Below, piece after piece: positions 28,906 to 59,713 of a stretch of DNA of 64,000 bases. Under the pieces are notes generated by a model that was given only the letters and a program-made list of their open reading frames with translations, had not been told where the DNA came from and ran no database searches. The position numbers were made by a program, and so were the translations under genes. The stretch comes from a virus (lineage: Duplodnaviria > Caudoviricetes): IMG/VR virus record IMGVR_UViG_3300030098_006079; one strand, 5' to 3'. The number at the start of each line of letters is the position of its first letter. Position 1 is the stretch's first letter.

Positions 28906-29562
28906 ATGTCATTTAAACTTTTAATCGAAAAAACTGACCCTCAAGAGTTTGAATATATTCTCGAAGAGAAGAATACTAAAGAAGCTCCACGGTTGTATAT
29001 CAAAGGACCGTATATGATGGCAGATGGTGTTAACAAAAACAATCGCGTATATGATCTTGATAATATGATTGAAGAGGTAGCGCGGTATGAAAAAGAAATG
29101 ATTAATGCAGATCGCGCCATGGGAGAGTTAAATCACCCTACTACTGCTGAAGTAGATTTAGAAAGAGCTTGTCATATTGTAACTGAAATGACTCAAGATG
29201 GTAGTACGTTTATTGGTAAAAGCAAAGTTTTACAAACACCATGTGGTGAGATTGTTCGAAAGCTTGTTACTGATGGTGTAAGAGTAGGTATGTCCTCAAG
29301 AGCATTAGGCAAGATTGATCAACAAGGAGAGGTTGGTAAAGTTAGTGAGATGAAACTTGTTGCTATTGATTGTGTTGCTGACCCATCCTATTCAGATGCA
29401 TTTGTAAATGGTATTTTAGAATCTAAACAATGGATTCTAAATAAAGACGGTTCGTTTGAAGAGCATTATGACAGGTTCGAAGAGAGTTTAAACAAACTAC
29501 CGCGCAATGATGTTAATGATTATCTAACAGAAAAAATCATTGCTTTCATTAGAAATATTTAA
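28906..29562 (+). CDS. gp21: Prohead core protease
   Basis: NKNNRVY, GELNHP, GMSSRALG and DCVADPS. Confidence 0.93.
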   Translation: MSFKLLIEKTDPQEFEYILEEKNTKEAPRLYIKGPYMMADGVNKNNRVYDLDNMIEEVARYEKEMINADRAMGELNHPTTAEVDLERACHIVTEMTQDGSTFIGKSKVLQTPCGEIVRKLVTDGVRVGMSSRALGKIDQQGEVGKVSEMKLVAIDCVADPSYSDAFVNGILESKQWILNKDGSFEEHYDRFEESLNKLPRNDVNDYLTEKIIAFIRNI

Positions 29563-29739: not shown

Positions 29740-30621
29740 ATGAGCAAGATAACTGATTTATTAAAAGAAGTAGGGAAAGACGTTCTCACAGAGGAAAGTC
29801 TTGAAACTATCGAGACAGTTTTTAACGAAGCTGTAGAGAAAAAAGCAACTGAGCGCGCTGAGCTCGCCACTGAAGCTGCATTGCAGGTTCAGGACGATGA
29901 GCATTCTAAGAAGCTAGAAGAGCTGCTTGAAGCAATCGACAAAGATCACGCGAAGAAACTCGAAAAAGTTGTTGAAGCAGTTGATACAGACCGTACACGT
30001 AAACTTAAGAATGTTATTCGTAAGTATCAGACTGCGATTGCTGAAGAAGCAAGTGGCTTAAAAGAAACCATGGTTGAATCTGTATCTGATTATCTTGACT
30101 CATATATTACAGACACCCTACCTACAGAGACCATCGAAGAAGCTACTAAAAATCGTCGTGCGTTTGACGTTCTTTCAGAAATTCGCAAAATGTTATCAGT
30201 TGATATGGTACTTGCTAATGAATCCATCCGCGAAGCTGTAAAAGACGGTAAAGCTACAATTGAAGAATCTAAGAAGAGTCTTGCTGAAATGACTGAATAT
30301 AATTCTGATCTTAAGATTCAATTAGAGGGTGCACAGAAAGAGTTATTTTTAGAAAAGAAACTCGCTGGCTTTGACGAAAAGAAAGCAAAATTTGTTCGTA
30401 AAACATTTGCTGATAAAGAATTAGCTTTCATCGAAGAAAATTTTGATTACACAGTAACAATGTTCGATAAGAAGACTGAAGAAGCTCTTCAAGTTCTTAA
30501 AGAAGAGGCTACTAAAGAGTGTAAAGCACAGGAAGCAGAAGTAGTTGTAGAAGAGAGCTCATCTACTCCTAAGTCAGCGACCGAACTTTACGCTGCTGAG
30601 TTAGCTGCAATGAGACTGTAA
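29740..30621 (+). CDS. gp22: Prohead scaffolding protein
   Basis: Acidic coiled-coil composition, TVFNEAV and SDYLDSYI; sits directly before the major capsid gene. Confidence 0.85.
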   Translation: MSKITDLLKEVGKDVLTEESLETIETVFNEAVEKKATERAELATEAALQVQDDEHSKKLEELLEAIDKDHAKKLEKVVEAVDTDRTRKLKNVIRKYQTAIAEEASGLKETMVESVSDYLDSYITDTLPTETIEEATKNRRAFDVLSEIRKMLSVDMVLANESIREAVKDGKATIEESKKSLAEMTEYNSDLKIQLEGAQKELFLEKKLAGFDEKKAKFVRKTFADKELAFIEENFDYTVTMFDKKTEEALQVLKEEATKECKAQEAEVVVEESSSTPKSATELYAAELAAMRL

Positions 30622-32308: not shown

Positions 32309-33220
32309 TTATTGTCTCAATGTTTTGATCCACGGAACCGTATGATCCCAAAAGAACTCATCAATCAAATATTCATGAGTAGTTCTAATAGGGTTAATGT
32401 CCCAACCACCTCGTCGTACATATAAACATGCTACCATAAGGGACCGCGGCTCAAAAGTATTATTCAATCTAGTAAAAATAGTCTCACAAATCTCTTCATG
32501 AAAATGACATTCATCTCTAAAAGAGATAATATACTTTAACAATTCTTTATCAGATGGATGCTTGGTACCTTCAAGAGAGATAAACACATCACCCCAGTCA
32601 GGTTGAGAAGTAACACGACAGTTACTCTTAAGTAAGGATGACATTACTCTGTAAGGCTTATTAGTAGAGTTCAAATGCTTTGTCTCTAACAAGCCGGGTG
32701 TTTCACTATAAACATTTACATAATAACTCTCTGCATCAATCTCATCAGTATTTTCTAATCTCTTATAGTTCTTATCAGTAAAAGGATTATCATTACTAAA
32801 TGTATCGCTTGTAGGAAATACAGTAACTCTTACATCTGTCTGAAGATACTTACTCAAGTCTTTCGAAGCTGTATCTTCTAGATTCTTAATTACCTTATCA
32901 AACGTATCTCCCATCTTAGTCATATTGAATGTATTCCAATACAACTTCATAGATTTAGATTCAACGATATACTTACTATCAGAAGGATATACTACTTTAG
33001 CAACCCCGCAAACAGGCACACCATTATTAGTTAATGCTGATATCTCGTAACCATTCCATACATCACAACCAATAAAAGGTAAGCTCTTTTCTTTAATGCC
33101 TAAGTGCTTACGATTACTCGATCGTGGTTCTCTCACTAACAGACTTGCATCATACTCAGATTTATACTGACTAGACTGTCCTAAGTGCTTACTAATATTT
33201 TTATTATCTAGTTTTGACAT
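32309..33220 (-). CDS. queF: NADPH-dependent 7-cyano-7-deazaguanine reductase (bimodular type)
   Basis: LGQSSQY, WNGYEIS, ESKSMKLY, LKSNCRVTSQPDWG, FHEEIC and RRGGWDINP. Confidence 0.92.
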   Translation of the reverse strand: MSKLDNKNISKHLGQSSQYKSEYDASLLVREPRSSNRKHLGIKEKSLPFIGCDVWNGYEISALTNNGVPVCGVAKVVYPSDSKYIVESKSMKLYWNTFNMTKMGDTFDKVIKNLEDTASKDLSKYLQTDVRVTVFPTSDTFSNDNPFTDKNYKRLENTDEIDAESYYVNVYSETPGLLETKHLNSTNKPYRVMSSLLKSNCRVTSQPDWGDVFISLEGTKHPSDKELLKYIISFRDECHFHEEICETIFTRLNNTFEPRSLMVACLYVRRGGWDINPIRTTHEYLIDEFFWDHTVPWIKTLRQ

Positions 33221-33758
33221 CTTCAATAATCTCTATCATCTTATTATATCTACTCTCTACACTTCCTTCCAGTACATAAATATTAGGATACTTCCCTAAT
33301 ATCAATTCTTCATATAGTTTAATAATTTGACTTCTAAAACTCTCACTCATAGATCTTTCTCCATCATTGATAAGAGGAACATCATAAGGATTAGTATAGA
33401 AGATACAATCATACTTTTCTATATATCTACCTAATGCATAACTAAACATTTTATCTACAAACTCATTTACTTTACCTTGTATTCTAAAATATCTAGTATA
33501 AACAAAACCATCTACTATACAACGATCTAAGATATTGTTCATATCTTTACCGCTATAAGTAAATAAATTTTGAATATGATCAGCAAAAATAGCTAACTGC
33601 GTATCATTATAGTTTGAACCATCGTCGTTAATCTCAAAACCACCACGCCGGATACGTCTTGTAACCTCATCGACTGAGCCCCATGCATTTGACTCTAAGA
33701 ATTCGCGCAACAGAGTAGTTTTACCACTACTCTGTGCGCCTGTAAAAGAAACTAACAT
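33204..33758 (-). CDS. P-loop nucleoside/nucleotide kinase-like protein (AAA_28/NadR-like)
   Basis: GAQSSGKTT, DEVTR, ILDRCIVDG and DGERS. Confidence 0.7.
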   Translation of the reverse strand: MLVSFTGAQSSGKTTLLREFLESNAWGSVDEVTRRIRRGGFEINDDGSNYNDTQLAIFADHIQNLFTYSGKDMNNILDRCIVDGFVYTRYFRIQGKVNEFVDKMFSYALGRYIEKYDCIFYTNPYDVPLINDGERSMSESFRSQIIKLYEELILGKYPNIYVLEGSVESRYNKMIEIIEDVKTR

Positions 33759-34108
33759 TATTTACCCCAGACACCATTATCGACTATCTGAGCGATTTTG
33801 CAATATAAACTTGAATCTTTCCATGCATCTTGAATAGGTTCATTAGCAGCTTCAGCAGTACGTTTCTTAATGACGAGATTAATGAGTCTCTGTACTTTAT
33901 CATTAACACGGAATACTAGTCCAGCTTTAGCAACTAAACGGCCATCCGGTTTAGATAAGTCCTGACCTACAGAAATATTAGTAGGGCCATAGTCGTATTG
34001 CTTATTAATAAATAGCTTGTATTCTTCTTCGAGAAGATCTCTCAACATTGCACATGTCTCAGGATAATCATTCTCTACTTCCGCCTTGATTTCAGTGTAA
34101 TCTTTCAT
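33758..34108 (-). CDS. Nmad1/DUF1599-like all-alpha nucleotide-modification-associated protein
   Basis: KQYDYG, FRVNDKVQRLINL and EPIQDAWKDSSLY. Confidence 0.65.
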   Translation of the reverse strand: MKDYTEIKAEVENDYPETCAMLRDLLEEEYKLFINKQYDYGPTNISVGQDLSKPDGRLVAKAGLVFRVNDKVQRLINLVIKKRTAEAANEPIQDAWKDSSLYCKIAQIVDNGVWGK

Positions 34109-34664
34109 TTAAAAAATTTATCCAAAGTTTTGTAGATTCAACATGAAGAGCTTTTTCTAGTTCTTCATATGTATTAAAGTTATTATCTATAATTGCATTT
34201 GCAACAATAGGACCATCATCGAGCTCGGGCGTTACCTTATGAATAACGCACCCAGCTCGATCATGTTTTGCTTCCCAAGCTTTTTTCTGAGGGTTAAAGC
34301 CTTTCAATTCTGGATAGATATCAATAGCGCCTGGATGACCATTATAGATGTTTGATGATCTAGTAAAGTCAGGAGGTAATATTCTCAGATACCCGTGCAA
34401 AGTAACAAACACCCCTTTAGCCCAATCATCATTAAGAATAGAATAGTTAAGAGCATCAGCTGCTTTAAGATAATCCATCTCTTTTGGCCATTTAGGTAAT
34501 CGTACAAACGGGAGACCTCCTGTTGACCTCTTATAGATCAATTCAATATTTGTACCTATATCTTCTTGTCTATTAGTAACAATAAGATCAGGCCATCTTT
34601 TGATCTGTTTAGAGATGTTTACAATTTCAGAACCAGTCTGACTATAAAATGCTACCCACTTCAT
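34092..34664 (-). CDS. dpdN: PurN-paralogue formyltransferase, candidate dPreQ1 formyltransferase
   Basis: FYSQTGSE, TLHGYLRIL, YNGHPG, GCVIHKV and LDDGPI; flanked by queF and a TGT-like gene. Confidence 0.7.
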   Translation of the reverse strand: MKWVAFYSQTGSEIVNISKQIKRWPDLIVTNRQEDIGTNIELIYKRSTGGLPFVRLPKWPKEMDYLKAADALNYSILNDDWAKGVFVTLHGYLRILPPDFTRSSNIYNGHPGAIDIYPELKGFNPQKKAWEAKHDRAGCVIHKVTPELDDGPIVANAIIDNNFNTYEELEKALHVESTKLWINFLNERLH

Positions 34665-35494
34665 TACCAATATCTTCTTTTAATAATTCTTTTGAACTGA
34701 CTTGTATTATACAAAATACGCTCTACTGCATCTTCATCAGGTTGCGCACCTATTAAGTCTGCTAACAGTTGTGATGGTTTATGATCTAGACCGAAGTCTC
34801 CATTATAGGTATAACCTAACAGACCTGCTACAACTGGATTAGATGTATCTAAGCTTCTAATATTATAGATATTATTATCTACATACCATCTAAACTCACT
34901 CGCAAGTGACGCACCTAACAAATGATGAGGTTTATTCCAGTCCCATTCTCCTTCGTCAATTAATCTTTTAACTAGATTCTGTCGTCCAGTGGATTGCCTT
35001 TTCAATTTAGCGTTTTCATCACAAATATGGCTAATGCCTGTAACATGATACATACTAAAATCGAAACTGATAGCGACATAATCCGCATTATTTTTCATAA
35101 AGCGATAACAATCTACTACCTCTGACCAAGTATCGCCTTGAACTGCTCCTATTCTAGCGCCTGGTAATTTACCATAGTTAGCTCGAAAATCTTTAAAATG
35201 ACTTATTGTCGCTGGTCCATTTTCAAGAACATCAGGGACAATATAATAATTAGGTTTAATCTTCTCACACCAAATAGCGTATTTGTCAGCATCAAACGCT
35301 TCTTTTAGTTCAAAGATAGAATTATCTAAGAGAATCTCTCCATTAGGTACTTTAGCTCTATATTTTTCTAGAAACCATTCTTTATATTCTTCTTGTTCTT
35401 CCATTAGATGGACTAAACAATATTGATAATCATTGTATTCTACCGATTCTGGTAGGAGAGCTATAGGAGATTCGTGCGATACCTTAATCGTCAT
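34664..35494 (-). CDS. dpdA: TGT-fold 7-deazaguanine DNA transglycosylase candidate (DpdA3-like)
   Basis: ILLDNSIFE, IVPDV, GAVQG, HLLG and SLDTSNP are TGT-barrel motifs; operon context supports the call. Confidence 0.65.
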   Translation of the reverse strand: MTIKVSHESPIALLPESVEYNDYQYCLVHLMEEQEEYKEWFLEKYRAKVPNGEILLDNSIFELKEAFDADKYAIWCEKIKPNYYIVPDVLENGPATISHFKDFRANYGKLPGARIGAVQGDTWSEVVDCYRFMKNNADYVAISFDFSMYHVTGISHICDENAKLKRQSTGRQNLVKRLIDEGEWDWNKPHHLLGASLASEFRWYVDNNIYNIRSLDTSNPVVAGLLGYTYNGDFGLDHKPSQLLADLIGAQPDEDAVERILYNTSQFKRIIKRRYW

Positions 35495-40033: not shown

Positions 40034-41047
40034 ATGGCAACGGTTAAGAAGGCTAGATTATTTCTACGTAGAGGAACTGATACAGATAGAAAAACCTCAG
40101 TTCTGTGTTCTGGTGAGCTCGGTTACTCAACTGATGCATTTAGAGTTTTTATAGGTGATGGTGCTACATTAGGTGGTAACCCAGTTGGTATTACATCTTT
40201 TATGAGCGCGGGTTCTGCGTTTCATACAGATCTTGTTGAAGCATCAGCAGCCGGCTACGCATTCAAAGGTGATTTTGCTTTATTCCCATCTAAAACATAT
40301 CTTAATTTAAATAATACTCAAATTACTCCCCCGACAGGTTTTGCTGTTGCCATGGTATTAACAGGTGAAGATGGAGCTAGTAATGCTCAATCATGGGTTG
40401 CTTTAAACTCAGGCATTCCGTTTGGTAATATTGTTGTAGGTGACGATGAAATCTCAGCTGATAAAATTCACGGTGGTACGTTTTCTGGTGATGTAAATTT
40501 TGAAATGTCATCTGCGACAACTAAGCTTAGTAGTTTATCAGTTTCCCACTTAACAGCTTTTAATGCGACAATTTCTGGTGCTGGTGGTAGCGGTCATAGA
40601 TATGTTTTATCTGACCCAGACGGTAAGCTATGCAACTCAGCTGAGACATATGATATCGGTAATACGGGTATTCAATGGCTTACTCTTTATCACGAAATAA
40701 CAGCGCGAGACCCATCAGCATCTACTGTACCTGGACATAATCAAGATCATGAATATACCTTGCCGGCAGCCGTGCCGTCATCTGCTACATCTGTATTATT
40801 AGCTGGTACTTGGCGAAGAAACGATCGCATGAACCCGCCTGCTATCTTATATGCTGGTGATGTACATGCTCATTTCATTCTCGCCCAAGCATGGGTTGCT
40901 AATGATGAATTAGCGGCAGGAGCGTTCCAATCATGGATACCGATTGGTGCTAATAAAAAAATTAAAATTAAATTTAATGATAAGTGGGCTGGATTAACAG
41001 GCAATTCTACTAGCCAATGGGGTCTAAGTGCTATAGCTTGGATGTAA
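40034..41047 (+). CDS. Tail fibre/appendage protein with an MTD-N-like N-terminus
   Basis: LRRGT...GELGYSTD...FIGDG N-terminal module; late box upstream. Confidence 0.7.
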   Translation: MATVKKARLFLRRGTDTDRKTSVLCSGELGYSTDAFRVFIGDGATLGGNPVGITSFMSAGSAFHTDLVEASAAGYAFKGDFALFPSKTYLNLNNTQITPPTGFAVAMVLTGEDGASNAQSWVALNSGIPFGNIVVGDDEISADKIHGGTFSGDVNFEMSSATTKLSSLSVSHLTAFNATISGAGGSGHRYVLSDPDGKLCNSAETYDIGNTGIQWLTLYHEITARDPSASTVPGHNQDHEYTLPAAVPSSATSVLLAGTWRRNDRMNPPAILYAGDVHAHFILAQAWVANDELAAGAFQSWIPIGANKKIKIKFNDKWAGLTGNSTSQWGLSAIAWM

Positions 41048-45529: not shown

Positions 45530-47911
45530 ATGAAGTTCAGTAAACAAGCACAATCTGCTTTAGCAATTTCTAAAAGTTACGCAGAAGAATACAAATGTAG
45601 GTATGCAGGTACTGAACATTTACTCTTAGGTTTAATAGAGTGTGACGATGAATTCTTAAAAGAAACTTTCGAACGCTTAGAGGTTGATTTTATAGATTTA
45701 AAAGATGTTGTTGTTAGTATTTGTCAATTAGAAGAAAACAATAAACTTTTTAAATTAGATGCTGGTCCAAATTTTACCCCTCGTGTATTACGTATTATAG
45801 ATTTTGCAAAAGGTTTAGCTGAGAAGCTTTCAAAAAACAATGTAGATGTAATACATTTATTTTTATCTTTACTTTATGAAAATGATGGTGTTGCGACTTC
45901 TATTTTATCAGAATATGGATTAAATTTTAATAATGTTAAAACAGTTATACAAAAAGAAATAGGTAATTTTGATAATGAAACTAAAATTCAATCTTTATCT
46001 ATACCTGAAAGTCTCGAACCTTTTTTTAACGACCTTACATATCTAGCTGCAAAAAATGAACTACAACATACTTTTTCTCGTGACGCAGAATTTGATAAAA
46101 TATATTTAGTGCTTGGTAAGAAGCATAATACAAATATTATTATTAGTGGTGAGCCTGGTGTTGGAAAAAGGTCTGTAGTTTATGAACTCGCAAAACGTAT
46201 TACAAAAAAACTCACCCCACCTCATTTACAGAACAAAAAAATTCTTGAATTAAAATTAAAAACTCTTATTAGCGGAACAAAATTTAGAGGAGATTTTGAA
46301 TCAAGAATTGATACTCTTCATGAATATCTAAAAAAGAATAATGATATTATTTTATTTATTAATGATATAGCTCTTATTACTAGACTTGAAGGTACAACAA
46401 ATATAGAAGAATATTTTAGTGAACTGTTTAATAGAGATGATATTAATTTTATTGGTACGTGTACAGCAGATGACTATAAAAAATATATTGATGATATTAC
46501 TACTATAAGTTCTAACTTTGAAAATATTATAGTTAAACAAACAAGCAATAAAGAGACGAAAGAGATTTTAAACACTATGATACCTACATATGAGAAATAT
46601 CATAATGTTAAATTTGAGCGCGATATTATAGATAATGTTATAGATTTATCTAGCCGATATATTGTAGATAAAAGTCAACCTTCCTGTGCATTAGATCTAC
46701 TAGATGAGTGTGGCTCATATATTAAAAACCAAATAGGTAGTACATCAGAACAATTGGTACAGTTACAACAAAAAATAGATAAATTAAATGAACAAAAGCT
46801 TGAAGCAGTAAAATCTTATGATTTCGAAACTGGTCTTAAATTATTAAGAAGAGAGACTACATTATCTAATAAGTTAAAAAAGGAACTCACTGACCGTAAG
46901 CAAGTTGAATTTGATAAAATTATAACTCGCTCGATAGTTAATAGAATTGTGAGTACTAAAACTGGTATACCACTATCAGATATATCAGGAAGTAGCTTAC
47001 CTGACTTAAATAAAGTCCAGAAAAAATTAACCGACAAATATGTATCTCAGAAAAAAGCTATCGATTCTATACTGTATCATTTTAAGAGAGTTAAAACTGG
47101 ATTACAAGACCCAAATAGGCCACTTGGATCATTTCTATTTATAGGGCCTACTGGTGTAGGTAAAACATATTTATGTGAGCTTATTTCTGAATACTTTTTT
47201 TATAATAAACAAAACTTTTTAAAAATAGATATGTCAGAATATATGGAACCTCATTCAGTTAGTAAATTGATTGGGTCTCCTCCAGGTTATGTTGGTTATG
47301 GTGATAGGTCTGTTTTATGCGATTTTATTAAAAACACTCCATACAGTTTAATATTACTTGATGAAATTGAAAAGGCTCATCCAGATGTTGTTAATATATT
47401 TCTACAAGTTTTAGATAAAGGTGAATTAACTGATAGTGTAGGTAGAAAAATAAATTTAAAAAATTGTATTATAGTATTTACTAGTAATATTGGTGCTGAT
47501 TTATTTGATAAAAACGCAATTGGTTTTGGTAGTTCGGCTATTAGTTCTATGGATTTAGAAAACTCGTTACAGAAATTTTTTAAACCTGAGTTTTTAAATA
47601 GATTATCTGAAATTATTAGATTTGAGCATTTAGATCAAGATGACATATATAATTTAGTTGATATCGAAACAAAAAAATTCGTTGCAAAATTACAGCAAAG
47701 TAACAATATTTTGTTTGTGTTAGATGATGATGCGCGTGAGTACATAGCTGAACAAGGATATAGCCGCAAATATGGAGCTCGATTCCTTAAGAGGTTTTTC
47801 GAGAAACATATTGAAACAGAAATAGCGACTCATATTATCCGAAGTAAAACTAAGCTCAAAAAAATCACTTGCAATTACTCCTCTAATAAGTTAATATTTA
47901 CCACATGCTGA
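45530..47911 (+). CDS. clpC: ClpC-like Hsp100 AAA+ ATPase
   Basis: Clp-N repeats (GTEHLLLGL, HLFLSLL), UVR-type M-domain, intact D2 (GPTGVGKT, LLDEIEKAH, GYVGY), IGF loop and YGAR. D1 is degenerate. Confidence 0.88.
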   Translation: MKFSKQAQSALAISKSYAEEYKCRYAGTEHLLLGLIECDDEFLKETFERLEVDFIDLKDVVVSICQLEENNKLFKLDAGPNFTPRVLRIIDFAKGLAEKLSKNNVDVIHLFLSLLYENDGVATSILSEYGLNFNNVKTVIQKEIGNFDNETKIQSLSIPESLEPFFNDLTYLAAKNELQHTFSRDAEFDKIYLVLGKKHNTNIIISGEPGVGKRSVVYELAKRITKKLTPPHLQNKKILELKLKTLISGTKFRGDFESRIDTLHEYLKKNNDIILFINDIALITRLEGTTNIEEYFSELFNRDDINFIGTCTADDYKKYIDDITTISSNFENIIVKQTSNKETKEILNTMIPTYEKYHNVKFERDIIDNVIDLSSRYIVDKSQPSCALDLLDECGSYIKNQIGSTSEQLVQLQQKIDKLNEQKLEAVKSYDFETGLKLLRRETTLSNKLKKELTDRKQVEFDKIITRSIVNRIVSTKTGIPLSDISGSSLPDLNKVQKKLTDKYVSQKKAIDSILYHFKRVKTGLQDPNRPLGSFLFIGPTGVGKTYLCELISEYFFYNKQNFLKIDMSEYMEPHSVSKLIGSPPGYVGYGDRSVLCDFIKNTPYSLILLDEIEKAHPDVVNIFLQVLDKGELTDSVGRKINLKNCIIVFTSNIGADLFDKNAIGFGSSAISSMDLENSLQKFFKPEFLNRLSEIIRFEHLDQDDIYNLVDIETKKFVAKLQQSNNILFVLDDDAREYIAEQGYSRKYGARFLKRFFEKHIETEIATHIIRSKTKLKKITCNYSSNKLIFTTC

Positions 47912-52610: not shown

Positions 52611-52898
52611 ATGAAGAAAATATTTAACATCATTAAGGAATATAAGAAAGAGATCGGAGGTTTACTTCGACATGCTGCTACTATAGCTGGAGGTGTTTTA
52701 ATCGCTAAAGGTTCTCTTACTACTGATAGTTTCCATTTGATTTTAGGTGCTTCTACAAGTATAATCGGTACAGGTTGGTCGTTTGCTAATAAGATTTCTC
52801 AAAGAAAAGAAGTCAAAGTTGCTTTATCTACGGACCCAGTGACCGGTGATGTTACTCGTAAATTTAACGAGGAAACAAAAACTTGGGAAAGCGCTTAA
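52611..52898 (+). CDS. Putative holin (two TM segments)
   Basis: LLRHAATIAGGVLIAKG...LILGASTSIIGTGWS; late box upstream; lysozyme gene nearby. Confidence 0.55.
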   Translation: MKKIFNIIKEYKKEIGGLLRHAATIAGGVLIAKGSLTTDSFHLILGASTSIIGTGWSFANKISQRKEVKVALSTDPVTGDVTRKFNEETKTWESA

Positions 52899-52902
52899 GA
52901 TA

Positions 52903-53253
52903 ATGCATACAGGTTATCTTTATATTATAAGCAATAGATCTTGGCCTGGGTGGATAAAGGTAGGAACTACTAAGAATCTAAAAACTCGTCTGCAAACTTA
53001 TCAGACGGGTTCTCCTTTTCGAGATTATGAGATTTTATATTCTATAAAGCATCCAGATTACCTGAAAGCAGAAAAGAATATAAAAATACAAATGGCTCAT
53101 TTTGCTAAACAGATAAAAAATGAGTGGTATGAAGTAGATATAGAAATCGCTAAAGTTAGATTATCAGAACAATTAGACAATTACTTTTATGGTGAATGTG
53201 ATTATGAAGAAAAATATGATCACATACCAGTAAGAGATTTTATTTATAAATAA
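52903..53253 (+). CDS. GIY-YIG-like T5orf172-domain protein
   Basis: GYLYII, WIKVGTT, RLQTYQTGSP, AEK and EWY. Confidence 0.8.
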   Translation: MHTGYLYIISNRSWPGWIKVGTTKNLKTRLQTYQTGSPFRDYEILYSIKHPDYLKAEKNIKIQMAHFAKQIKNEWYEVDIEIAKVRLSEQLDNYFYGECDYEEKYDHIPVRDFIYK

Positions 53254-53258
53254 TTATA

Positions 53259-54080
53259 ATGACATTTGATCAATTAAATGAAGCAAATGAGATTATTTTG
53301 CAAGAAGGACCTTTTGCGAAGGCTCTTGCAGCATTAGGTATTTTAGGAGCTACCTTAGGTAGTCCGGGCGAAGTACAAGCCAAAATGCCTACTCCAATAA
53401 CTCAAGCCATTAAACAAGATCAATCTTATTACGATTATATTGCGCCGAGTGAAGGTAAAGGTAAAGCTGGTCGCCCCGGGTACGCGTACAAAGACCACAA
53501 AGGTTACTTAACCGTTGGAGTAGGCCATCTTGTTTTACGTAACGACAAAGCCTTACAACAAGTAGCGGGAAGAGATTATAATAGCGTTATAAGAGGTCGT
53601 GTACCGTTATCTGATAGACAAATGGAAGCTTTATTTAATATAGACGTACAAGCAAAAATTGCTGCTGCCAGACGAGCATTACCAGCATTTGACTCCTACC
53701 CGCAGTACTTACGTAATGCTATTGTAGATGGTTTCTTTAGAGGAGATTTATCAGGAAGTAAAAATACTTTAGGTTTAATGAATAAAGGCCAATGGAAAGC
53801 AGCCGCAAAAGAATATCTCAATCATGCTGGTTATAGAACTTCAAAAGAAGAAGGAACAGGTGTAGCTGGTAGGATGGAACGTAATGCAGCTGTGTTTGCT
53901 ACTTATGGTGGTGGTTCATCTCCCCAACAACCAGTAAAGACCGACTTCTATACAGTTAAGTCTGGAGATACATTAAGTAAGATATCTAAAATGACAGGTA
54001 AGTCAATTAAAGATATAATGCAGAAGAATAGAATTACCAACCCGAATAAGATTAGTGTTGGTCAAAAGTTATCTATTTAG
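53259..54080 (+). CDS. T4-lysozyme-like (GH24) muramidase with C-terminal LysM
   Basis: SEG...YKDHKGYLTVGVGHL (E, D-x5-T) and YTVKSGDTLSKIS...NPNKISVGQKL. Confidence 0.88.
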   Translation: MTFDQLNEANEIILQEGPFAKALAALGILGATLGSPGEVQAKMPTPITQAIKQDQSYYDYIAPSEGKGKAGRPGYAYKDHKGYLTVGVGHLVLRNDKALQQVAGRDYNSVIRGRVPLSDRQMEALFNIDVQAKIAAARRALPAFDSYPQYLRNAIVDGFFRGDLSGSKNTLGLMNKGQWKAAAKEYLNHAGYRTSKEEGTGVAGRMERNAAVFATYGGGSSPQQPVKTDFYTVKSGDTLSKISKMTGKSIKDIMQKNRITNPNKISVGQKLSI

Positions 54081-54498
54081 CGCCTCGTTCTTGCCAATTG
54101 TAAGATTTTTCATCCGTTGTTATCGGACCACCTTTTGCCCATGTATGACAAGCTCTCGCACTGTGACATTTAAAGTGATGCATCCAACAGTAACCTAATC
54201 TACCATCGTCATCAGATGTTTCTCCAGGCATACAAGCATCCATTCTAGGAGAAATATCAAACGCTACACAGTTTCCGCACAGAGATGCTCTTGCAGCCCT
54301 TTCGGTTGTCTTCCAGTACCTAGCGATTCTTTTCCAATAATTACCGGGCTCACTTACATTTAATGGTCCGTAATTATAATCTCGTATTGTTGCATCTCTA
54401 TTCTTAGTGTTTAATGCTAGGTCTTGAGTTGCCGCTGGACAATCCATTCCAGCTTTTTCTAGTATTGTTTGTATTAATGATTCGAATAGTTTTGTCAT
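54073..54498 (-). CDS. Cys-rich small protein (HiPIP-like Cys spacing), putative internal head protein
   Basis: CGNCVAF, GYC and FKCHSARACHTW; N-terminus MTKLFESLIQTILE. Confidence 0.5.
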   Translation of the reverse strand: MTKLFESLIQTILEKAGMDCPAATQDLALNTKNRDATIRDYNYGPLNVSEPGNYWKRIARYWKTTERAARASLCGNCVAFDISPRMDACMPGETSDDDGRLGYCWMHHFKCHSARACHTWAKGGPITTDEKSYNWQERGAK

Positions 54499-54499
54499 T

Positions 54500-54895
54500 T
54501 TACCAGTCCTTACACGCTTGATATCTGGCCGTACCTGGTTTAGCAGAACTACATTTATGTCTTGCTCTAAAGCTTTTCCTTCTTTTAGTATTTGCCTTAC
54601 CAGATACTTTCACACCTTTTTGACCCCAATGTATTCTCTTATAACCTTTACCGTCAGGGTTCTTAACACACTTCATCCACTTCTTACCTTTCGCAGTACT
54701 ACTAGCTTTCTTAGTAGACTTAGTACATCTTGCTGCTTCATCAATATCTTCTTTAGAAATCTTAGCAGCTTGCTTCTTCATCTGCTTTCTATACTTTGGA
54801 TCATTCTTCCATTTACTAGAAACTTTACCCTTCTTTTTAGCTTTGTTAATATTATCCCAAAGACCTTCGTATAGTTTATCGAATTCTGGTGTCAT
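54500..54895 (-). CDS. Small basic protein (RRKSFRARHxC motif), putative internal head protein
   Basis: LYE-GLWDNI, EDIDE-A and RRKSFRARHKC...ARYQACKDW. Confidence 0.55.
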   Translation of the reverse strand: MTPEFDKLYEGLWDNINKAKKKGKVSSKWKNDPKYRKQMKKQAAKISKEDIDEAARCTKSTKKASSTAKGKKWMKCVKNPDGKGYKRIHWGQKGVKVSGKANTKRRKSFRARHKCSSAKPGTARYQACKDW

Positions 54896-54913: not shown

Positions 54914-55263
54914 TGGAAACTACTAAAAAATTAGATAGTTACTTAAATGAATTGCATTGTCATTGTGACGGTAAGTCTCATGGTAAGAAGAAAAAGAAAA
55001 AAGTAAACGAAGATAATGCTGAACCTGATGGTGCAGGTATGGCTAAAACTGATTTATTTCATCTAGCTAACACATCTAAAGAACTACATGATATGTTAGA
55101 TGATGAATATCCATTAGATGATTGGATGGAAGCTAAATTAACAAAAGCAGCTGATTATGTTAAGTCTGTATATCAATCTGTTGCATACGATATAAAGGGT
55201 GAAGGGGAAGAAACTACAAACGAACATACTACAATTTATATTACTACTCCTGATGCCAAATAA
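54913..55263 (+). CDS. Small acidic/basic protein, putative internal head protein
   Basis: SYLNE, poly-K, GMAKTDL...WMEAKLTKAADY module. Confidence 0.55.
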   Translation: METTKKLDSYLNELHCHCDGKSHGKKKKKKVNEDNAEPDGAGMAKTDLFHLANTSKELHDMLDDEYPLDDWMEAKLTKAADYVKSVYQSVAYDIKGEGEETTNEHTTIYITTPDAK

Positions 55264-56119
55264 TTTTAAAACATATTTCGAAGAAAATAATTATTATAAT
55301 GATACTCTTCATCCTGATTTTTGGGATGAATTTGAGTTTAAAGAGGATATACTTAAGCCAATTTTAAAAATTGTTGACGACTTCGTACAGGACGATGATC
55401 ATATTTCTGCTGAGATGATAGAAGATATACAGTTAACTGGCTCATTAGCCAATTATAACTATTCAGAGTACTCTGATTTAGATGTACATATACTTTTAGA
55501 CTTTGCTGATATTAATAAAGATGAAGATTTAGTAAAGCGTGCGTTAGATGGAAAGAGATTTATTTGGAACCTTAGACATGATATAAAATTTAATGGCCAT
55601 GAAGTTGAGTTATATTTTCAAGATATTCATGAACCTCATGTGGCTTCCGGTCTATTTAGTTTATCTGGCAATAGATGGATTAAAAAGCCTAAATACGAAA
55701 AACCGGAAGTAGATCACGAGGACGTAGTAAAAAAAGCTGAGTCGTTTAAAAAAGAGCTTGATCTCTTAGCTGATGCATTAGATAATATTAGCGACGAGAA
55801 AGAATTTAGTCTTATTAATAGACGTGCAAAGAAGCTTAAAGATAAGATTATGAAGATGCGTAGAGAAGGTCTCGCTAGTAAAGGAGAGTTTTCTGTTGAG
55901 AATCTCGCATTTAAAAATTTACGTAATGATCAGACTATAGCTAGATTAAATGATCTAATTATTAAGTCATATGATCTTATGTATTCAAAAGAAGAGTTAA
56001 AAGAGAAGGTTGGTTTAGAAGAATGGGAAAAAGCTATGTTGAGTGCTTTAGGTACCAAAAACGATAAAAACGCTCAACATCAAAAAGAAAAACCAAAAAG
56101 ATATCCTATAGGTATATGA
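55253..56119 (+). CDS. Pol-beta superfamily nucleotidyltransferase
   Basis: LTGSLANYNYSEYSDLDVHI (GS...DxD), third acid in EVELY and GEFSVENLAFK; start moved to MPNNFKTYFEE. Confidence 0.8.
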   Translation: MPNNFKTYFEENNYYNDTLHPDFWDEFEFKEDILKPILKIVDDFVQDDDHISAEMIEDIQLTGSLANYNYSEYSDLDVHILLDFADINKDEDLVKRALDGKRFIWNLRHDIKFNGHEVELYFQDIHEPHVASGLFSLSGNRWIKKPKYEKPEVDHEDVVKKAESFKKELDLLADALDNISDEKEFSLINRRAKKLKDKIMKMRREGLASKGEFSVENLAFKNLRNDQTIARLNDLIIKSYDLMYSKEELKEKVGLEEWEKAMLSALGTKNDKNAQHQKEKPKRYPIGI

Positions 56120-57183
56120 AAACATATAAACAATATTTTAAAGAGAATTATATTAAGTTTATTGATCCTGATACTGGTAAAGAAGTAAAGCGTAGAGTAT
56201 CAGATACTTTTATTAATAGTATTTTAAAAAAGAAATCTGACAAGTTCGACTCTGCGTCGTATTTAAAAAAGATTAGAGATCATGGAGTAAAAACTGGAGC
56301 ATTTGATAAGGGAGAAAATATTGACTCTAGAGATGTTGTTGCATTTTTTGACTTTATAAAAGAGGCAGTACCTCGCAATCAACTACATAATTTTTTAAAA
56401 GAATTACCAAGAAAAGATTTACAAGCTCGTTTTAAAGAGGAGCTTTCTAGGTCTAAAAAATTTAGCTTTTTAGATGTTTTAGATACTACGTGTGACCCGT
56501 CTTGCAAATTCGCTGATGCATTAGCAAGTAATCCAGTTGTACTTAAAATTAGACCAGCGTCTGATAGATATAAGACTCGTGGTGCAGCTGGTCCTGGTGA
56601 AGCATTTTTAGCTTTTATGTTTTCTGGTAGAAAACCATCTGGGGCTGGAGACTTAGAATTAGACGATATGATTGTTGAGTTAAAAGCCAATGGTGGTCGA
56701 ATAGCTAAAGACTTAGATTTTCGAGGCCAAGGAAGATTATTAAGAAGTTTTTATCCAGGTATTAAGAGTACGACACAAGAAGCCTTACCTTTAATTTTAC
56801 GTCATTTTAATCAATCAGAGACGGATTTAAGTATGTTAGATTTTCTATCTGCAGTTTCTGGAGTACCATCTGGTTTAGACGATCTTGATATTAAATATTT
56901 TGCCAAGAGACCGATATATGATCTCAAAAAATACCCTACATACAGAGAGTTAATACAATTGTTAGGACCAATACAAATGAAAAATTACTTCACTAAAATC
57001 GCTGACTTTAATACAATTGCTATATTTGATAATGATATAATTATAGGTTTTAGTAGAGATATTTTACAGCAAAAAACCTCAGTTCAAATACAAAAAGAGT
57101 TTGCAAATAGTGGTGTTATAATAGGAGCAAAACCAGCAGGTGGAAGTGCATATGATGCATCAGGGTTTACAATTAATGTATGA
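56116..57183 (+). CDS. Putative PD-(D/E)xK nuclease-like protein with CTS-like N-terminus
   Basis: GPGEAFLAF...GDLELDDMIVELKA; N-terminus MKTYKQYFKE. Confidence 0.5.
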   Translation: MKTYKQYFKENYIKFIDPDTGKEVKRRVSDTFINSILKKKSDKFDSASYLKKIRDHGVKTGAFDKGENIDSRDVVAFFDFIKEAVPRNQLHNFLKELPRKDLQARFKEELSRSKKFSFLDVLDTTCDPSCKFADALASNPVVLKIRPASDRYKTRGAAGPGEAFLAFMFSGRKPSGAGDLELDDMIVELKANGGRIAKDLDFRGQGRLLRSFYPGIKSTTQEALPLILRHFNQSETDLSMLDFLSAVSGVPSGLDDLDIKYFAKRPIYDLKKYPTYRELIQLLGPIQMKNYFTKIADFNTIAIFDNDIIIGFSRDILQQKTSVQIQKEFANSGVIIGAKPAGGSAYDASGFTINV

Positions 57184-57395
57184 ACGCAATCGGATTATAT
57201 GATACAATGGTAATGGGTTATAGGGTTAAAGTACAACCTTATAAAATTACTATATTCGATGAAGACGGTTCAATTGAGGGTACTCAAATACCTAATAAGT
57301 TAGTAAGATATATTATACATGAAGGTTTTTGCGATGCTTGGCTTACAGAGAGCATGGCTATAAAGGTTAACGTTTATAGGATTAAAGATATATGA
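57180..57395 (+). CDS. Small hypothetical protein
   Basis: Coupled to both neighbours by ATGA overlaps. Confidence 0.5.
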   Translation: MNAIGLYDTMVMGYRVKVQPYKITIFDEDGSIEGTQIPNKLVRYIIHEGFCDAWLTESMAIKVNVYRIKDI

Positions 57396-58438
57396 TAACA
57401 TACAAAGAATATTTTTTATTTAATGAAGGTGGTGCAGGAGGTCATATGCAGCATCCTTTTGATGTTGATTCAGTAAACTCTGGTCAAGATCTAATAGATT
57501 TTTTTAATAGAGCGCACGATAGTTTAAGTAACAATCCTGGATCATTAAAAATAGATGGCGTTAATGCTTCTATAAAATTTATAGGTAATGAATTCGCTTT
57601 AGATAGAGGAAGTAATAAACCAATAGACGTTGAAGGTATTACTATATCAAGATTAGGTGAAAGGTTTCCTGAAGGTCATGGAATGATTAAAGTTGGTACT
57701 GAAGTGCTTTCGTTTTTTAACGACGCGTTAGGTAACATACAACAAGAATTACAATCATTAGGCATATTAGATAACCCGAATGTGCTTTTTAATTTAGAAT
57801 ATGTTGATGGTAGTACTAATGTTCTAGAATATGATGAAAAATTTATCGCTATACATGGTTTATTAGAAATGTATCAAGCTACACCTCGTAGACGTGCTTC
57901 GAAAGAAATTAATTATAATCCTGAGGTAATGCAATCGTTGATAGAAAAATTAAACCAAGCTGGAACATTTAAGGTTTTCGGATCTGTTGACGTAGGTGTC
58001 GGAGAAAGGCCTAATTATGAAGCGGTATTAGCTCAAAACGTAGAAATACCATATGAACAATCTAGTAATGAAGTTAAACCGTTAAAGCAATGGTTGCAAG
58101 AGTTAAACTTACCTAAGAGAGTCAAGTTAAAGAGGCTAGATGGTACACCGAGAGAAGCAATAAGCAAAGCAAACTACATGGATATTATCTTACAGCAAGT
58201 ACCTGTTGATACATTATATGAGAACCCAGACGAACAAAGAGCTGCTATTGATGGAGCTATTGTTTATCATGCAACAAGATTTTTAGGTAAAGCCTTACTC
58301 GAAACTCTCGATTCACCAATGGGTCGTGTCGACTCTCATGAAGGAGTTGTTATAAGAGATCCGAGAATTGATGTACGCCCGGTAAAAATTACAGGTGACT
58401 TTATCATTCAAGGTTTACAAAGTACATTCCGTAAATAG
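57392..58438 (+). CDS. RNA-ligase-like (ligase/capping nucleotidyltransferase domain) protein with CTS-like N-terminus
   Basis: Motif I KIDG (57548), III NLEYV, IIIa FIAIHG, IV EGVVIRD (58340) and V VKITG. Confidence 0.6.
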   Translation: MITYKEYFLFNEGGAGGHMQHPFDVDSVNSGQDLIDFFNRAHDSLSNNPGSLKIDGVNASIKFIGNEFALDRGSNKPIDVEGITISRLGERFPEGHGMIKVGTEVLSFFNDALGNIQQELQSLGILDNPNVLFNLEYVDGSTNVLEYDEKFIAIHGLLEMYQATPRRRASKEINYNPEVMQSLIEKLNQAGTFKVFGSVDVGVGERPNYEAVLAQNVEIPYEQSSNEVKPLKQWLQELNLPKRVKLKRLDGTPREAISKANYMDIILQQVPVDTLYENPDEQRAAIDGAIVYHATRFLGKALLETLDSPMGRVDSHEGVVIRDPRIDVRPVKITGDFIIQGLQSTFRK

Positions 58439-58475: not shown

Positions 58476-59060
58476 ATGACTATCGTTTTTAATTTATTTG
58501 ATTCCTCTTATAGTGGTAGTTTTTTAAGCTCATGGGTTAATTTAACTTCTTATCTAAATAAGACTGGTATTTATTATTATGTGTCTCAACACTCAAGCTG
58601 TAATGCTTTTTATGCTAAGCAGATGTGTTTAGGAGGTAACGTATTAGCTGGTCCTAAACAAAAGCCATATCAAAACAAAATTAATTATGACGTATTAGTT
58701 TTTCTAAGCAATAAAATTACATTTACTTCTACTACGTTTATTAAAACATTAGATAAATTTATGGAAAGTGATCATAAATTTTTATCAGGTATGTTCGAAG
58801 GTAGGTATAAAGCTAAAAATGAAGACGATAATTATATTATAGCTGATTTTTTAGACTTTGATTTAGTCTTTATTAAAAAAGGAATATTTGAGCAACTTAC
58901 ATATCCTTGGTTTAAGCCACATGTAAGCAAGAATAAAATAGAACAACAATACATAGATATTGATATATGTAATAGAATAAAAGAACAAAATATAGATTTA
59001 CTTATAGATAAAAATATAGAATTAAATGAAAGTAATTTTAATTTCGTAAAAATAAAATGA
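58476..59060 (+). CDS. Degenerate GT2-like protein (paralogue of the next gene)
   Basis: FSGSFLSSW...KQMCLGG...QKPY...YDVLVFLSN aligns with the next ORF but lacks DxD. Confidence 0.55.
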   Translation: MTIVFNLFDSSYSGSFLSSWVNLTSYLNKTGIYYYVSQHSSCNAFYAKQMCLGGNVLAGPKQKPYQNKINYDVLVFLSNKITFTSTTFIKTLDKFMESDHKFLSGMFEGRYKAKNEDDNYIIADFLDFDLVFIKKGIFEQLTYPWFKPHVSKNKIEQQYIDIDICNRIKEQNIDLLIDKNIELNESNFNFVKIK

Positions 59061-59713
59061 ATAAGACTATTATTATATGTTGTCCTGGACAGTCATTTAC
59101 AGGTAAGTTTTTAACATCTCTTACATATTTGATTAGACATTTACATAGTAAAGGGTTTAAAGTTTTATTTAGTACAACATTTTCTCGTAACATATATGAA
59201 GTACGTAACAAATGTCTTATGGGTGACCCTAGTAATGGTCCTGATCAACAGTTATTTAACGGTCAAGATTATGATTACATATTATGGCTAGATGATGATA
59301 TTATTTTTACTCCAGAAGATTTTGAAAAGTTATATAAAGAGGATAAAGATGTTATATCAGGTTTGTATTTAATGGCTAATGGAACTCAGTTCGCTGCTGT
59401 TGAAGTGTGGGACGAAGAATTTTTCAAAGAAAACGGGACGTTTGAATTTCTTAATAAACAAGATATATCTCATAGGTTATTACCGTTTAGTGTTGAGTAT
59501 GTTGGTTTTGGATTTTTATTATTTAAAAAAGGAATCTTTGAGCAATTACAATATCCATGGTTTGAGCCTACATTTTTAGAGATAAAAGATTGTATTGATT
59601 TTTCTATGGAGGACGTAACTCTTTGTATAAAATTGCGCAAATTAAATATCGACGTTTATGTACATCCAGATGTTGTTGTAGGTCATCAAAAGGAAGTTGA
59701 GTTAAAAATATGA
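59057..59713 (+). CDS. GT2-like glycosyltransferase
   Basis: CCPGQSF, VRNKCLMG, YDYILWLDDD, VGFGFLL, SMEDV and VGHQK. Confidence 0.7.
   Translation: MNKTIIICCPGQSFTGKFLTSLTYLIRHLHSKGFKVLFSTTFSRNIYEVRNKCLMGDPSNGPDQQLFNGQDYDYILWLDDDIIFTPEDFEKLYKEDKDVISGLYLMANGTQFAAVEVWDEEFFKENGTFEFLNKQDISHRLLPFSVEYVGFGFLLFKKGIFEQLQYPWFEPTFLEIKDCIDFSMEDVTLCIKLRKLNIDVYVHPDVVVGHQKEVELKI

Follow-up and report, generated by a model that had tools for sequence, protein, structure and literature searches.

A ligase-fold nucleotidyltransferase behind a T4-type capsid-targeting-like leader in an uncultured T4-like phage

Introduction

In bacteriophage T4, the first 10 residues of the capsid-targeting sequence (CTS) suffice to load a protein into the head, with positions 4 and 7 serving in targeting and positions 8 and 10 in processing by gp21 (PMC9026906), and in the internal-protein loci of T-even phages only the CTS is conserved (PMC3012670). 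The leaders read in the T4 record are MKTYQEFIAE for internal proteins (IP) II and III and MKTFKEF...ITE for IPI, each followed by Ala. Here, we analyze a gene that starts in a similar manner and encodes a ligase-like protein. It lies in a stretch of 64,000 nucleotides (hereafter, the window) from the IMG/VR virus record IMGVR_UViG_3300030098_006079, which is part of the genome of an uncultured T4-like phage.

The locus shares with T4 IPI, IPII, IPIII and Alt a short propeptide that ends in hydrophobic-x-Glu before a small residue, the variable payloads and a gp21 homologue. Unlike the T4 internal proteins, the payload is a 336-residue ligase-fold enzyme instead of a small basic inhibitor or an ADP-ribosyltransferase. 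On the enzyme side, the closest described systems are T4 Rnl1, Rnl2/REL1, Rnl3, Rnl5 from Naegleria and Trl1, whose adenylyltransferase fold it shares; we know of no loading of T4 Rnl1 through a CTS. Together, its ligase-like fold and its T4-type head-loading tag suggest that the protein probably travels in the virion and serves to seal strands. In its complete form, the proposal is that a ligase-type adenylyltransferase would be loaded into the virion, trimmed by gp21 and used to reseal broken nucleic acid at the start of infection, and we assign it a probability of about 0.5.

A ligase-like fold with a conserved active site

ORF calling (ORF, open reading frame) confirmed a reading frame at 57392-58438 on the plus strand, with boundaries exactly as first noted. 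The AlphaFold2 model of its product, built from an alignment of 46 family members, has a predicted local distance difference test score (pLDDT) of 91.4 and a predicted template-modeling score of 0.87, with only residues 1-16 and 346-348 disordered. When the model was compared with 48,161 PDB representatives in a VIA structural search, the 26 best-ranked matches comprised only RNA ligases, DNA ligases and capping enzymes. T4 Rnl1 comes first (Z 9.1, root-mean-square deviation of 4.8 Å, 188 aligned residues), followed by the Prochlorococcus DNA ligase (Z 7.3), Naegleria Rnl5 (Z 7.2) and then Trl1, archaeal Rnl3, T4 Rnl2 and REL1, the RNA ligases other than Rnl1 being in the range of Z 6.1-7.2. 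The fold assignment rests on this search and not on Foldseek, which gave no PDB match at E ≤ 0.001, its best being a weak one at E 5e-3 with RNA ligases on top. Two sequence comparisons go in the same direction: an hhalign alignment with T4 Rnl1 places NLEYV on NFE159FV, which holds the motif III Glu (E 0.071 over 42 columns, weak and not significant alone), and a homologue of 41% identity has a sub-threshold match to PF09414 (RNA_ligase; E 0.019, 15.6 bits against a cut-off of 27). The protein is best explained as a divergent nucleotidyltransferase of the covalent superfamily that comprises ligases and capping enzymes, consisting of the adenylyltransferase domain only.

Conservation in the family follows the active site. 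Among the 46 aligned sequences, which are diverse and share 35-85% identity, no substitution is seen at K53, D55, G56, N58, D71, R72, N134, E317, G318 or K332, and at least 90% of the sequences retain E136 and H155. The same motif columns are again invariant in 56 multidomain relatives, and KxDGxN is present in 268 of the 270 stored family members. The initial annotation had read KIDG, NLEYV, FIAIHG, EGVVIRD and VKITG in this order as ligase/capping-enzyme motifs, and all of them are in place between residues 53-58 and 331-335. Moreover, it had named two findings on which the idea could fall, a predicted fold of another kind or a KIDG lysine neither adenylated nor kept among homologues; neither applies, since homologues retain the lysine and the predicted fold resembles that of ligases. 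Motif V occurs as KIT (190 sequences), KVT (28), KIS (21) and KLT (15), that is, as K-[IVL]-[TS]. An inert internal protein was also considered and was rejected because the catalytic-type residues are invariant across the family.

Two further elements distinguish the family. A conserved GGAxGHMxHPFD precedes the ligase-like core in the 46-sequence alignment, and this Gly/His-rich element is also kept in internal copies of the domain, always after L-[LIV]-x-E. Besides, a 137-residue α/β insert separates motifs IIIa and IV; when folded alone, its best PDB match is at Z 3.9, which is no match and shows neither a new fold nor a function. As had been claimed from the sequence, the OB domain is absent, since the protein ends 13 residues past VKITG and this leaves no room for it.

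With regard to the known families, the protein has no sequence match in Pfam (E ≤ 1), PHROGs, NCBIfam or the PDB, also when the profile of the 46-sequence alignment was used. It resembles the Rnl1 group in the ordered motif I Lys, motif III Glu, motif IV EG and motif V Lys, in the lack of an OB domain and in its phage origin. However, neither a Pfam nor a PDB sequence match links it to the Rnl1 family (PF09511), and it has no C-terminal tRNA-specificity domain. Likewise, there is no match at E ≤ 1 to the Rnl2/REL1 family (PF09414) and no C-terminal nick-binding domain. In contrast to Rnl1, Rnl2 and Rnl5, it lacks their terminal domains and contains instead the insert, the Gly/His-rich element and a motif V with a single lysine. 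Minimal DNA ligases, such as the Lig E type and the Chlorella virus ligase, have the same core (Z 7.3 and 5.9) and are also small and viral or marine, but the protein differs from them and from ATP-dependent DNA ligases in general in having no PF01068 match and no OB domain or motif VI after the nucleotidyltransferase domain. Hence, of the label RNA-ligase-like that was first given to the protein, the fold stands, whereas membership in Rnl1, Rnl2 or Rnl3 is borne out by neither sequence nor architecture.

The family is large: one protein library yielded 514 relatives, and a second, clustered at 50% identity, yielded 457 clusters. It is viral only, judged by the taxa of its structural and feature neighbors. 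The gene is maintained, as shown by full-length homologues with 74-99% identity that occur on six further viral contigs. A tblastn search of 50,697 phage records gave one weak match, in Microcystis phage Mel-JY01, and a 4.3-kb part of the window from the helicase to the protease-like gene had no blastn match.

The leader is a discrete and portable module

The leader, MITYKEYFLFNE followed by GG, resembles those of the T4 internal proteins in its aromatic residues Y4 and Y7 and its hydrophobic-x-Glu end; the rules for T4-type CTSs (PMC9026906) call for a propeptide of 10-19 residues with aromatics at positions 4 and 7 and an [LI]-x-Glu end, the end here being F-N-E. In the window, only three first-ATG ORF starts fit the leader pattern, at 55253, 56116 and 57392. 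These three genes are neighbors in one operon, the second and the third being separated only by a 71-residue ORF. Leaders are present in 94 members of the family, mostly of 11-13 residues and typically MKTFKEYILNE or MRTFKQHYNILNE; other members have none and either begin at the domain or hold it internally.

The strongest evidence that the leader is portable is its presence, unchanged, on a different body. In three sister contigs (L010-L012), the same slot is occupied by a 418-residue DUF6267 protein (PF19782, E 8e-88) behind an identical 12-residue leader, and in the L010 protein the DUF6267 model begins only at residue 17. At the DNA level, the window and L010 are about 90% identical across the upstream gene and the 12 codons of the leader, and the identity collapses right after the Glu12 codon; the leader codons differ by three synonymous and no nonsynonymous changes. 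The leader is therefore a discrete portable module, and the CTS-like start pointed out in the initial annotation behaves as one of T4 type. The replacement of one ligase-fold gene by another, very distant one, with the leader kept identical, is a clean case of cassette exchange at the boundary of the signal peptide. This exact swap, together with a sister family that has no Pfam entry, is what is new at this locus.

A similar situation is seen in the neighboring slot at 56116-57183, where at least four bodies (355, 364, 365 and 317 residues; in other contigs at L003 1361-2455, L005 4965-6062 and L010 1758-2711) stand behind MKT[YF]K[QH][YF]F, so this position is a hypervariable payload slot. 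The swap at the leader boundary and the variable payloads reproduce the pattern of the T-even internal-protein loci. Also, a 193-kb phage contig with a leader-bearing fusion protein of the family contains a cluster of small genes with M..F..L..[LI]xE starts, and in the same contig (L020 13285-17812) four consecutive radical-SAM genes lie downstream of that fusion of ligase-like and NMNAT-like domains.

A sister family of DUF6267 and an NMNAT-like partner

The family is a sister of Pfam DUF6267, the cyanophage core gene T4-GC71. The nearest clusters by language-model features (0.98) carry DUF6267, and so do 22% of the members of the neighboring cluster by predicted structure (TM 0.92). The hhalign alignment with DUF6267 is limited to the C-terminal third (E 0.004), and the DUF6267 model does not match the protein even at E ≤ 1, for which reason we consider it a sister family rather than a member. 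Both have the KxDG, EG and K motifs, a His-rich start (H-L-x-H-[LP]-E-[DE]-L in DUF6267 proteins), the same slot and leader in the sister contigs and a link with an NMNAT-like enzyme. On the other hand, the cyanophage DUF6267 members have no leader and are encoded in the replication module, unlike the gene studied here. DUF6267 is present in 465 phage records, and T4-GC71 was present in each of the 16 T4-like cyanophages whose genomes Sullivan et al. compared.

The link with NMNAT-like enzymes is recurrent. In 15 of the 56 multidomain relatives, and in many of the library relatives as well, the ligase-like domain is fused to a HIGH-motif NMNAT-like domain (PF01467, E ≤ 0.001); natural fusions of the two measure, for example, 553-564 residues. 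Tad3, an inhibitor of Thoeris ThsB, is fused in 3 of the 56, and GNAT, SET, amidase, DUF192 and DUF5661 are occasional partners; such mixed domain strings have the look of polyvalent conflict proteins (PMC5512222). For example, the metagenomic protein P0191 (1002 residues) contains NMNAT-like, DUF5661, Tad3, ligase-like and C-terminal GS...DxD-type domains, with two of its junctions reading LL-x-E-GG; its C-terminal domain has no significant BLAST match to the Pol-beta-type gene that neighbors the ligase-like gene. In cyanophages, DUF6267 also adjoins the NMNAT-like T4-GC190, which was found in S-SM1 virions (PMC3037559). Cytidyltransferases recur in cyanophage virion proteomes, with a warning of possible carry-over (PMC10665884). 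The T4-GC190 protein, annotated as a "cytitidyltransferase", itself starts with a 10-residue T4-CTS-like peptide, MKKFSAFLNE or MKKFSAFLSE, followed by Ala and by about 85 residues before the HIGH-motif domain. No NMNAT-like gene was found by a motif scan of the window or by a PF01467 search of three related contigs, all of which are fragments.

Proposed mode of action and alternative explanations

By analogy with ligases, we infer that AMP would be transferred from ATP, or from some other adenylate donor, to K53 and onward to a 5'-phosphate end, and that attack of a 3'-OH would seal the break, with the 137-residue insert perhaps replacing the missing OB/C-terminal domain in holding the substrate. 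Because the leader is detachable and of T4 type, loading into the prohead, trimming and ejection are probable. In this sequence of events, the leader-bearing enzyme would be built into the prohead core and the gp21-type protease, which the window encodes, would trim it after Glu12 to leave Gly13 as the new N-terminus. The enzyme would then be ejected with the DNA to reseal nucleic acid broken on entry, before phage genes are expressed.

Regarding the substrate, the predominance of RNA ligases in the structural list, the absence of an OB domain, the KxDGxN form of motif I and the sub-threshold PF09414 match of a homologue tip the balance slightly to RNA sealing. The KxDGxN form is common in RNA ligases. 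Nonetheless, the replication and recombination setting of the leaderless relatives fits DNA sealing at least as well as tRNA repair. On the grounds of predicted fold and motifs, we would lean only slightly to RNA-ligase-type chemistry over DNA nick sealing, the rest of the weight going to some other acceptor.

Several observations weigh against the proposal as a whole. E136, E317-G318 and K332 are conserved and in order, but motif V has one lysine where the superfamily has K-x-K, and the protein matches none of the known ligase architectures, being without the OB domain, the C-terminal domains of Rnl1 and Rnl2 and the N-terminal domain of Rnl5. The leader ends in F-N-E, with Phe at P3, versus L-N-E or I-N-E in most homologues. 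Besides, internal copies of the domain in fusion proteins retain the L-[LIV]-x-E-GG junction, so it may be part of the domain and not merely a cleavage site. The cyanophage T4-GC71 proteins, which have no leader, are not flagged as virion proteins in the proteomics table, and a literature search on DUF6267 found no paper. No polynucleotide kinase/phosphatase and no end-healing enzyme of another kind turned up when the cassette genes and the other tested ORFs of the window were searched by BLAST and Pfam, and tblastn of T4 PseT and RnlA against the window gave nothing credible. The suggestion in the initial annotation that the enzyme could repair tRNA cut by anticodon nucleases has nothing that points to it specifically. 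Finally, the late-promoter motif TATAAATA occurs in the window 18 times versus 19 expected, which is chance, and sigma-70-like promoters and terminators are also at chance level, so expression timing is not readable from the sequence.

These observations bear on other explanations of the gene. One that has a real, if minor, claim is that the protein is a housekeeping DNA ligase standing in for T4 gp30, which would seal Okazaki fragments and recombination nicks, perhaps with the NMNAT-like partner supplying or regenerating the donor, the leader being incidental or giving a head start. In its favor, T4-GC71, kept in 16/16 cyanophages, lies between uvsX/gp41/mazG and gp61 in Syn9, Syn1 and S-SM1, and a leaderless fusion protein of the family (P0038) has its gene immediately behind those of a primase and a fused gp46/47-like nuclease. 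Searches of the complete Syn9, S-SM1 and Syn1 genomes gave no match to PF01068, PF01653 or PF09414, in agreement with the placement of gp30 in the group of genes absent from one or more T4-related cyanophages (PMC2993671). In addition, the slot holds one or the other ligase-fold gene in all nine related contigs, and the second-best structural match is a DNA ligase. However, the gene described here stands in a variable, leader-bearing cassette that runs into fiber genes and not in a replication module, the structural list is dominated by RNA ligases, and motif I has the KxDGxN form. To our knowledge, all known DNA ligases have an OB domain and motif VI, both of which are missing. Also, the window is a 64-kb part of a genome, the best related record is 59% complete, and a canonical ligase could be encoded elsewhere. 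A broader version, which we find rather improbable, makes this family together with DUF6267 the long-missing OB-less ligase of T4-like phages without gp30, working with T4-GC190, preloaded into the capsid through a T4-type tag in some lineages and swapped as a cassette; the T4-GC190 partner might then provide the adenylate donor, recycle it or take over the function of the absent motif VI.

The other two explanations concern the acceptor and the leader. A transferase of adenylyl or other nucleoside monophosphate groups acting on a non-polynucleotide acceptor, such as an NAD-related nucleotide or a host protein that would be AMPylated, as an anti-defense tool beside an NMNAT-like enzyme, would agree with the recurrent NMNAT-like and Tad3 fusions, with the GNAT, SET, amidase, DUF192 and DUF5661 partners typical of polyvalent conflict proteins, with the single motif V lysine and with an insert that has no known nucleic-acid-binding fold. 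We judge it quite unlikely, given that all structural neighbors above Z 5.2 are polynucleotide ligases or capping enzymes, that the EG of motif IV is ligase-like and that an NMNAT-like gene was found neither in the window nor in the three related contigs; moreover, fusions in polyvalent proteins need not imply a shared pathway. The leader, for its part, might have no packaging role and represent an A/T-rich constraint on initiation and coupling or the first element of the domain, the enzyme then acting only from new synthesis. The ATGA gene overlap, which puts the start region under an RNA-level constraint, the L-[LIV]-x-E-GG of internal copies, the lack of a leader in fusions that begin with the NMNAT-like domain and the nondetection of cyanophage T4-GC71 in virions would all be compatible with this. 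Against it, the changes in the leader between the window and L010 are all synonymous, the same leader type is found on unrelated bodies, the DUF6267 model begins only after the leader of the L010 protein, the leader is disordered in the model, and the T4-GC190 protein detected in virions has the same kind of start. This explanation, whose weight overlaps with that of the others, is accordingly rather unlikely in our opinion.

If the proposal of a virion-loaded sealing enzyme is correct, the T4 head-loading tag, whose experimental definition comes solely from T-even coliphages, would also be conserved in uncultured T4-like phages from aquatic habitats at a far greater distance. In those phages, it would label a set of enzymes that enter along with the DNA, and injected phage proteins could then be found in metagenomes by a simple rule based on sequence. 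Moreover, the few catalytic cargo proteins of virions, Alt among them, would be joined by one with a ligase fold, and its delivery would imply a need to reseal broken nucleic acid ahead of the expression of the first phage gene. It would also give a testable function to a virus-only family of hundreds of clusters, to DUF6267 and to their recurrent NMNAT-like partner, and would bear on how T4-like phages without gp30 seal their DNA.

Genomic setting and other genes of the window

The ligase-like gene is the last of four genes starting at 55253, 56116, 57180 and 57392 (Table 1). Its ATG overlaps the stop of the 71-residue ORF as ATGA, and the two preceding junctions are built likewise, which indicates that the four genes of the cassette are translationally coupled. 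The cassette runs on into two glycosyltransferase-like genes and then fiber genes. The first gene of the cassette has a GS...DxD motif and atlas neighbors with NTP_transf_2, and it is kept in all related loci. The head genes of the window comprise the portal (gp20), a gp4-like head-completion protein, the gp21-type prohead protease and the gp23-type major head protein, with about 31-35% identity to their T4 and cyanophage homologues; the probable scaffold gene sits between those of the protease and the major head protein. A gp3-like sheath stabilizer, ribonucleotide reductase and long fiber genes are also present.

Table 1. Coordinates of the ligase-like gene, its sequence elements and related features. 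Positions are those of the window unless a contig is named.
Feature	Location	Strand	Basis or conservation
Ligase-fold nucleotidyltransferase gene with N-terminal leader	57392..58438	+	ATG-to-stop ORF, 348 residues
T4-type capsid-targeting-like propeptide MITYKEYFLFNE, residues 1-12, ending in hydrophobic-x-Glu	57392..57427	+	Likeness to T4 IP leaders; pLDDT <50
Gly/His-rich family-specific element GGAGGHMQHPFD at start of mature domain	57428..57463	+	G14, H18, H21, P22 in ≥90%
Motif I KIDGVN, residues 53-58; K53 is the predicted AMP-accepting lysine	57548..57565	+	K53, D55, G56, N58 invariant
Motif Ia-like DRG (D71, R72)	57602..57610	+	Invariant; motif Ia label inferred from position only
Motif III NLEYV, residues 134-138 (E136)	57791..57805	+	N134 invariant, E136 in ≥90%
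Motif IIIa-like FIAIHG, residues 151-156 (H155)	57842..57859	+	H155 in ≥90%; within the modeled long β hairpin 146-164
α/β insert that separates motif IIIa from motif IV (residues 172-308); candidate module for substrate binding	57905..58315	+	Folds alone, pLDDT 93.5
Motif IV EGVVIRD, residues 317-323	58340..58360	+	E317, G318 invariant
Motif V VKITG, residues 331-335	58382..58396	+	K332, G335 invariant; Thr/Ser follows single lysine, not the usual K-x-K
Pol-beta-superfamily nucleotidyltransferase, start MPNNFKTYFEE...	55253..56119	+	Weak Pfam NTP_transf_2/Polbeta/SidM_N; phrog_36119 at 5e-38
355-residue neighbor, start MKTYKQYFKE, closest match to T4 tag; variable payload slot	56116..57183	+	ORF and leader scan
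71-residue conserved ORF directly upstream, overlapping start of ligase-like gene	57180..57395	+	ORF list, sister-contig comparison
gp21-type prohead protease, expected leader-trimming enzyme	28906..29562	+	phrog_207 at 7e-56; 33% identity to T4 gp21, E 2e-22
Probable scaffold (gp22 position)	29740..30621	+	Acidic, helical, [LI]-x-E-rich; position and composition only
T4-GC190 protein, S-SM1 SSM1_190	L016 5257-6420		
T4-GC190 protein, Syn9 gp184	L013 4911-6059		

Directly after the ligase-like gene, at 58476-59713 (+), are two adjacent phrog_1574 paralogues, both kept in the sister contigs and the second with weak glycosyltransferase matches. On the other side of the cassette, two small genes without a Pfam match, at 54500-54895 (-) and 54073-54498 (-), have the starts MTPEFDKLYE followed by Gly and MTKLFESLIQTILE followed by Lys, respectively. 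The product of the first is very lysine-rich, like T4 internal proteins, and its L010 homologue has an extra internal segment. Next to them, the gene at 53259-54080 (+) encodes a lysozyme (weak Phage_lysozyme match) and LysM protein, which starts with MTFDQLNEANEIILQE followed by Gly and then by a hydrophobic stretch.

Farther away, the region 32309-35494 (-) is a deazaguanine-related block with QueF (PF14819, 4e-32), an AAA_28 P-loop protein similar to the NadR ribosylnicotinamide kinase (9.5e-14) and a formyltransferase-like protein. The N-terminus of the product of 40034-41047 (+) matches Mtd_N (1e-7), from the major tropism determinant of phages with diversity-generating retroelements. A 793-residue Lon-like ATP-dependent protease (phrog_4871, 5e-182) is encoded at 45530-47911 (+), amid structural and nucleotide-metabolism genes. 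Finally, the T5orf172/MUG113 (GIY-YIG-related) protein of 52846-53253 (+), which adjoins the ribonucleotide reductase genes, is probably the product of a selfish gene of the homing-endonuclease type.

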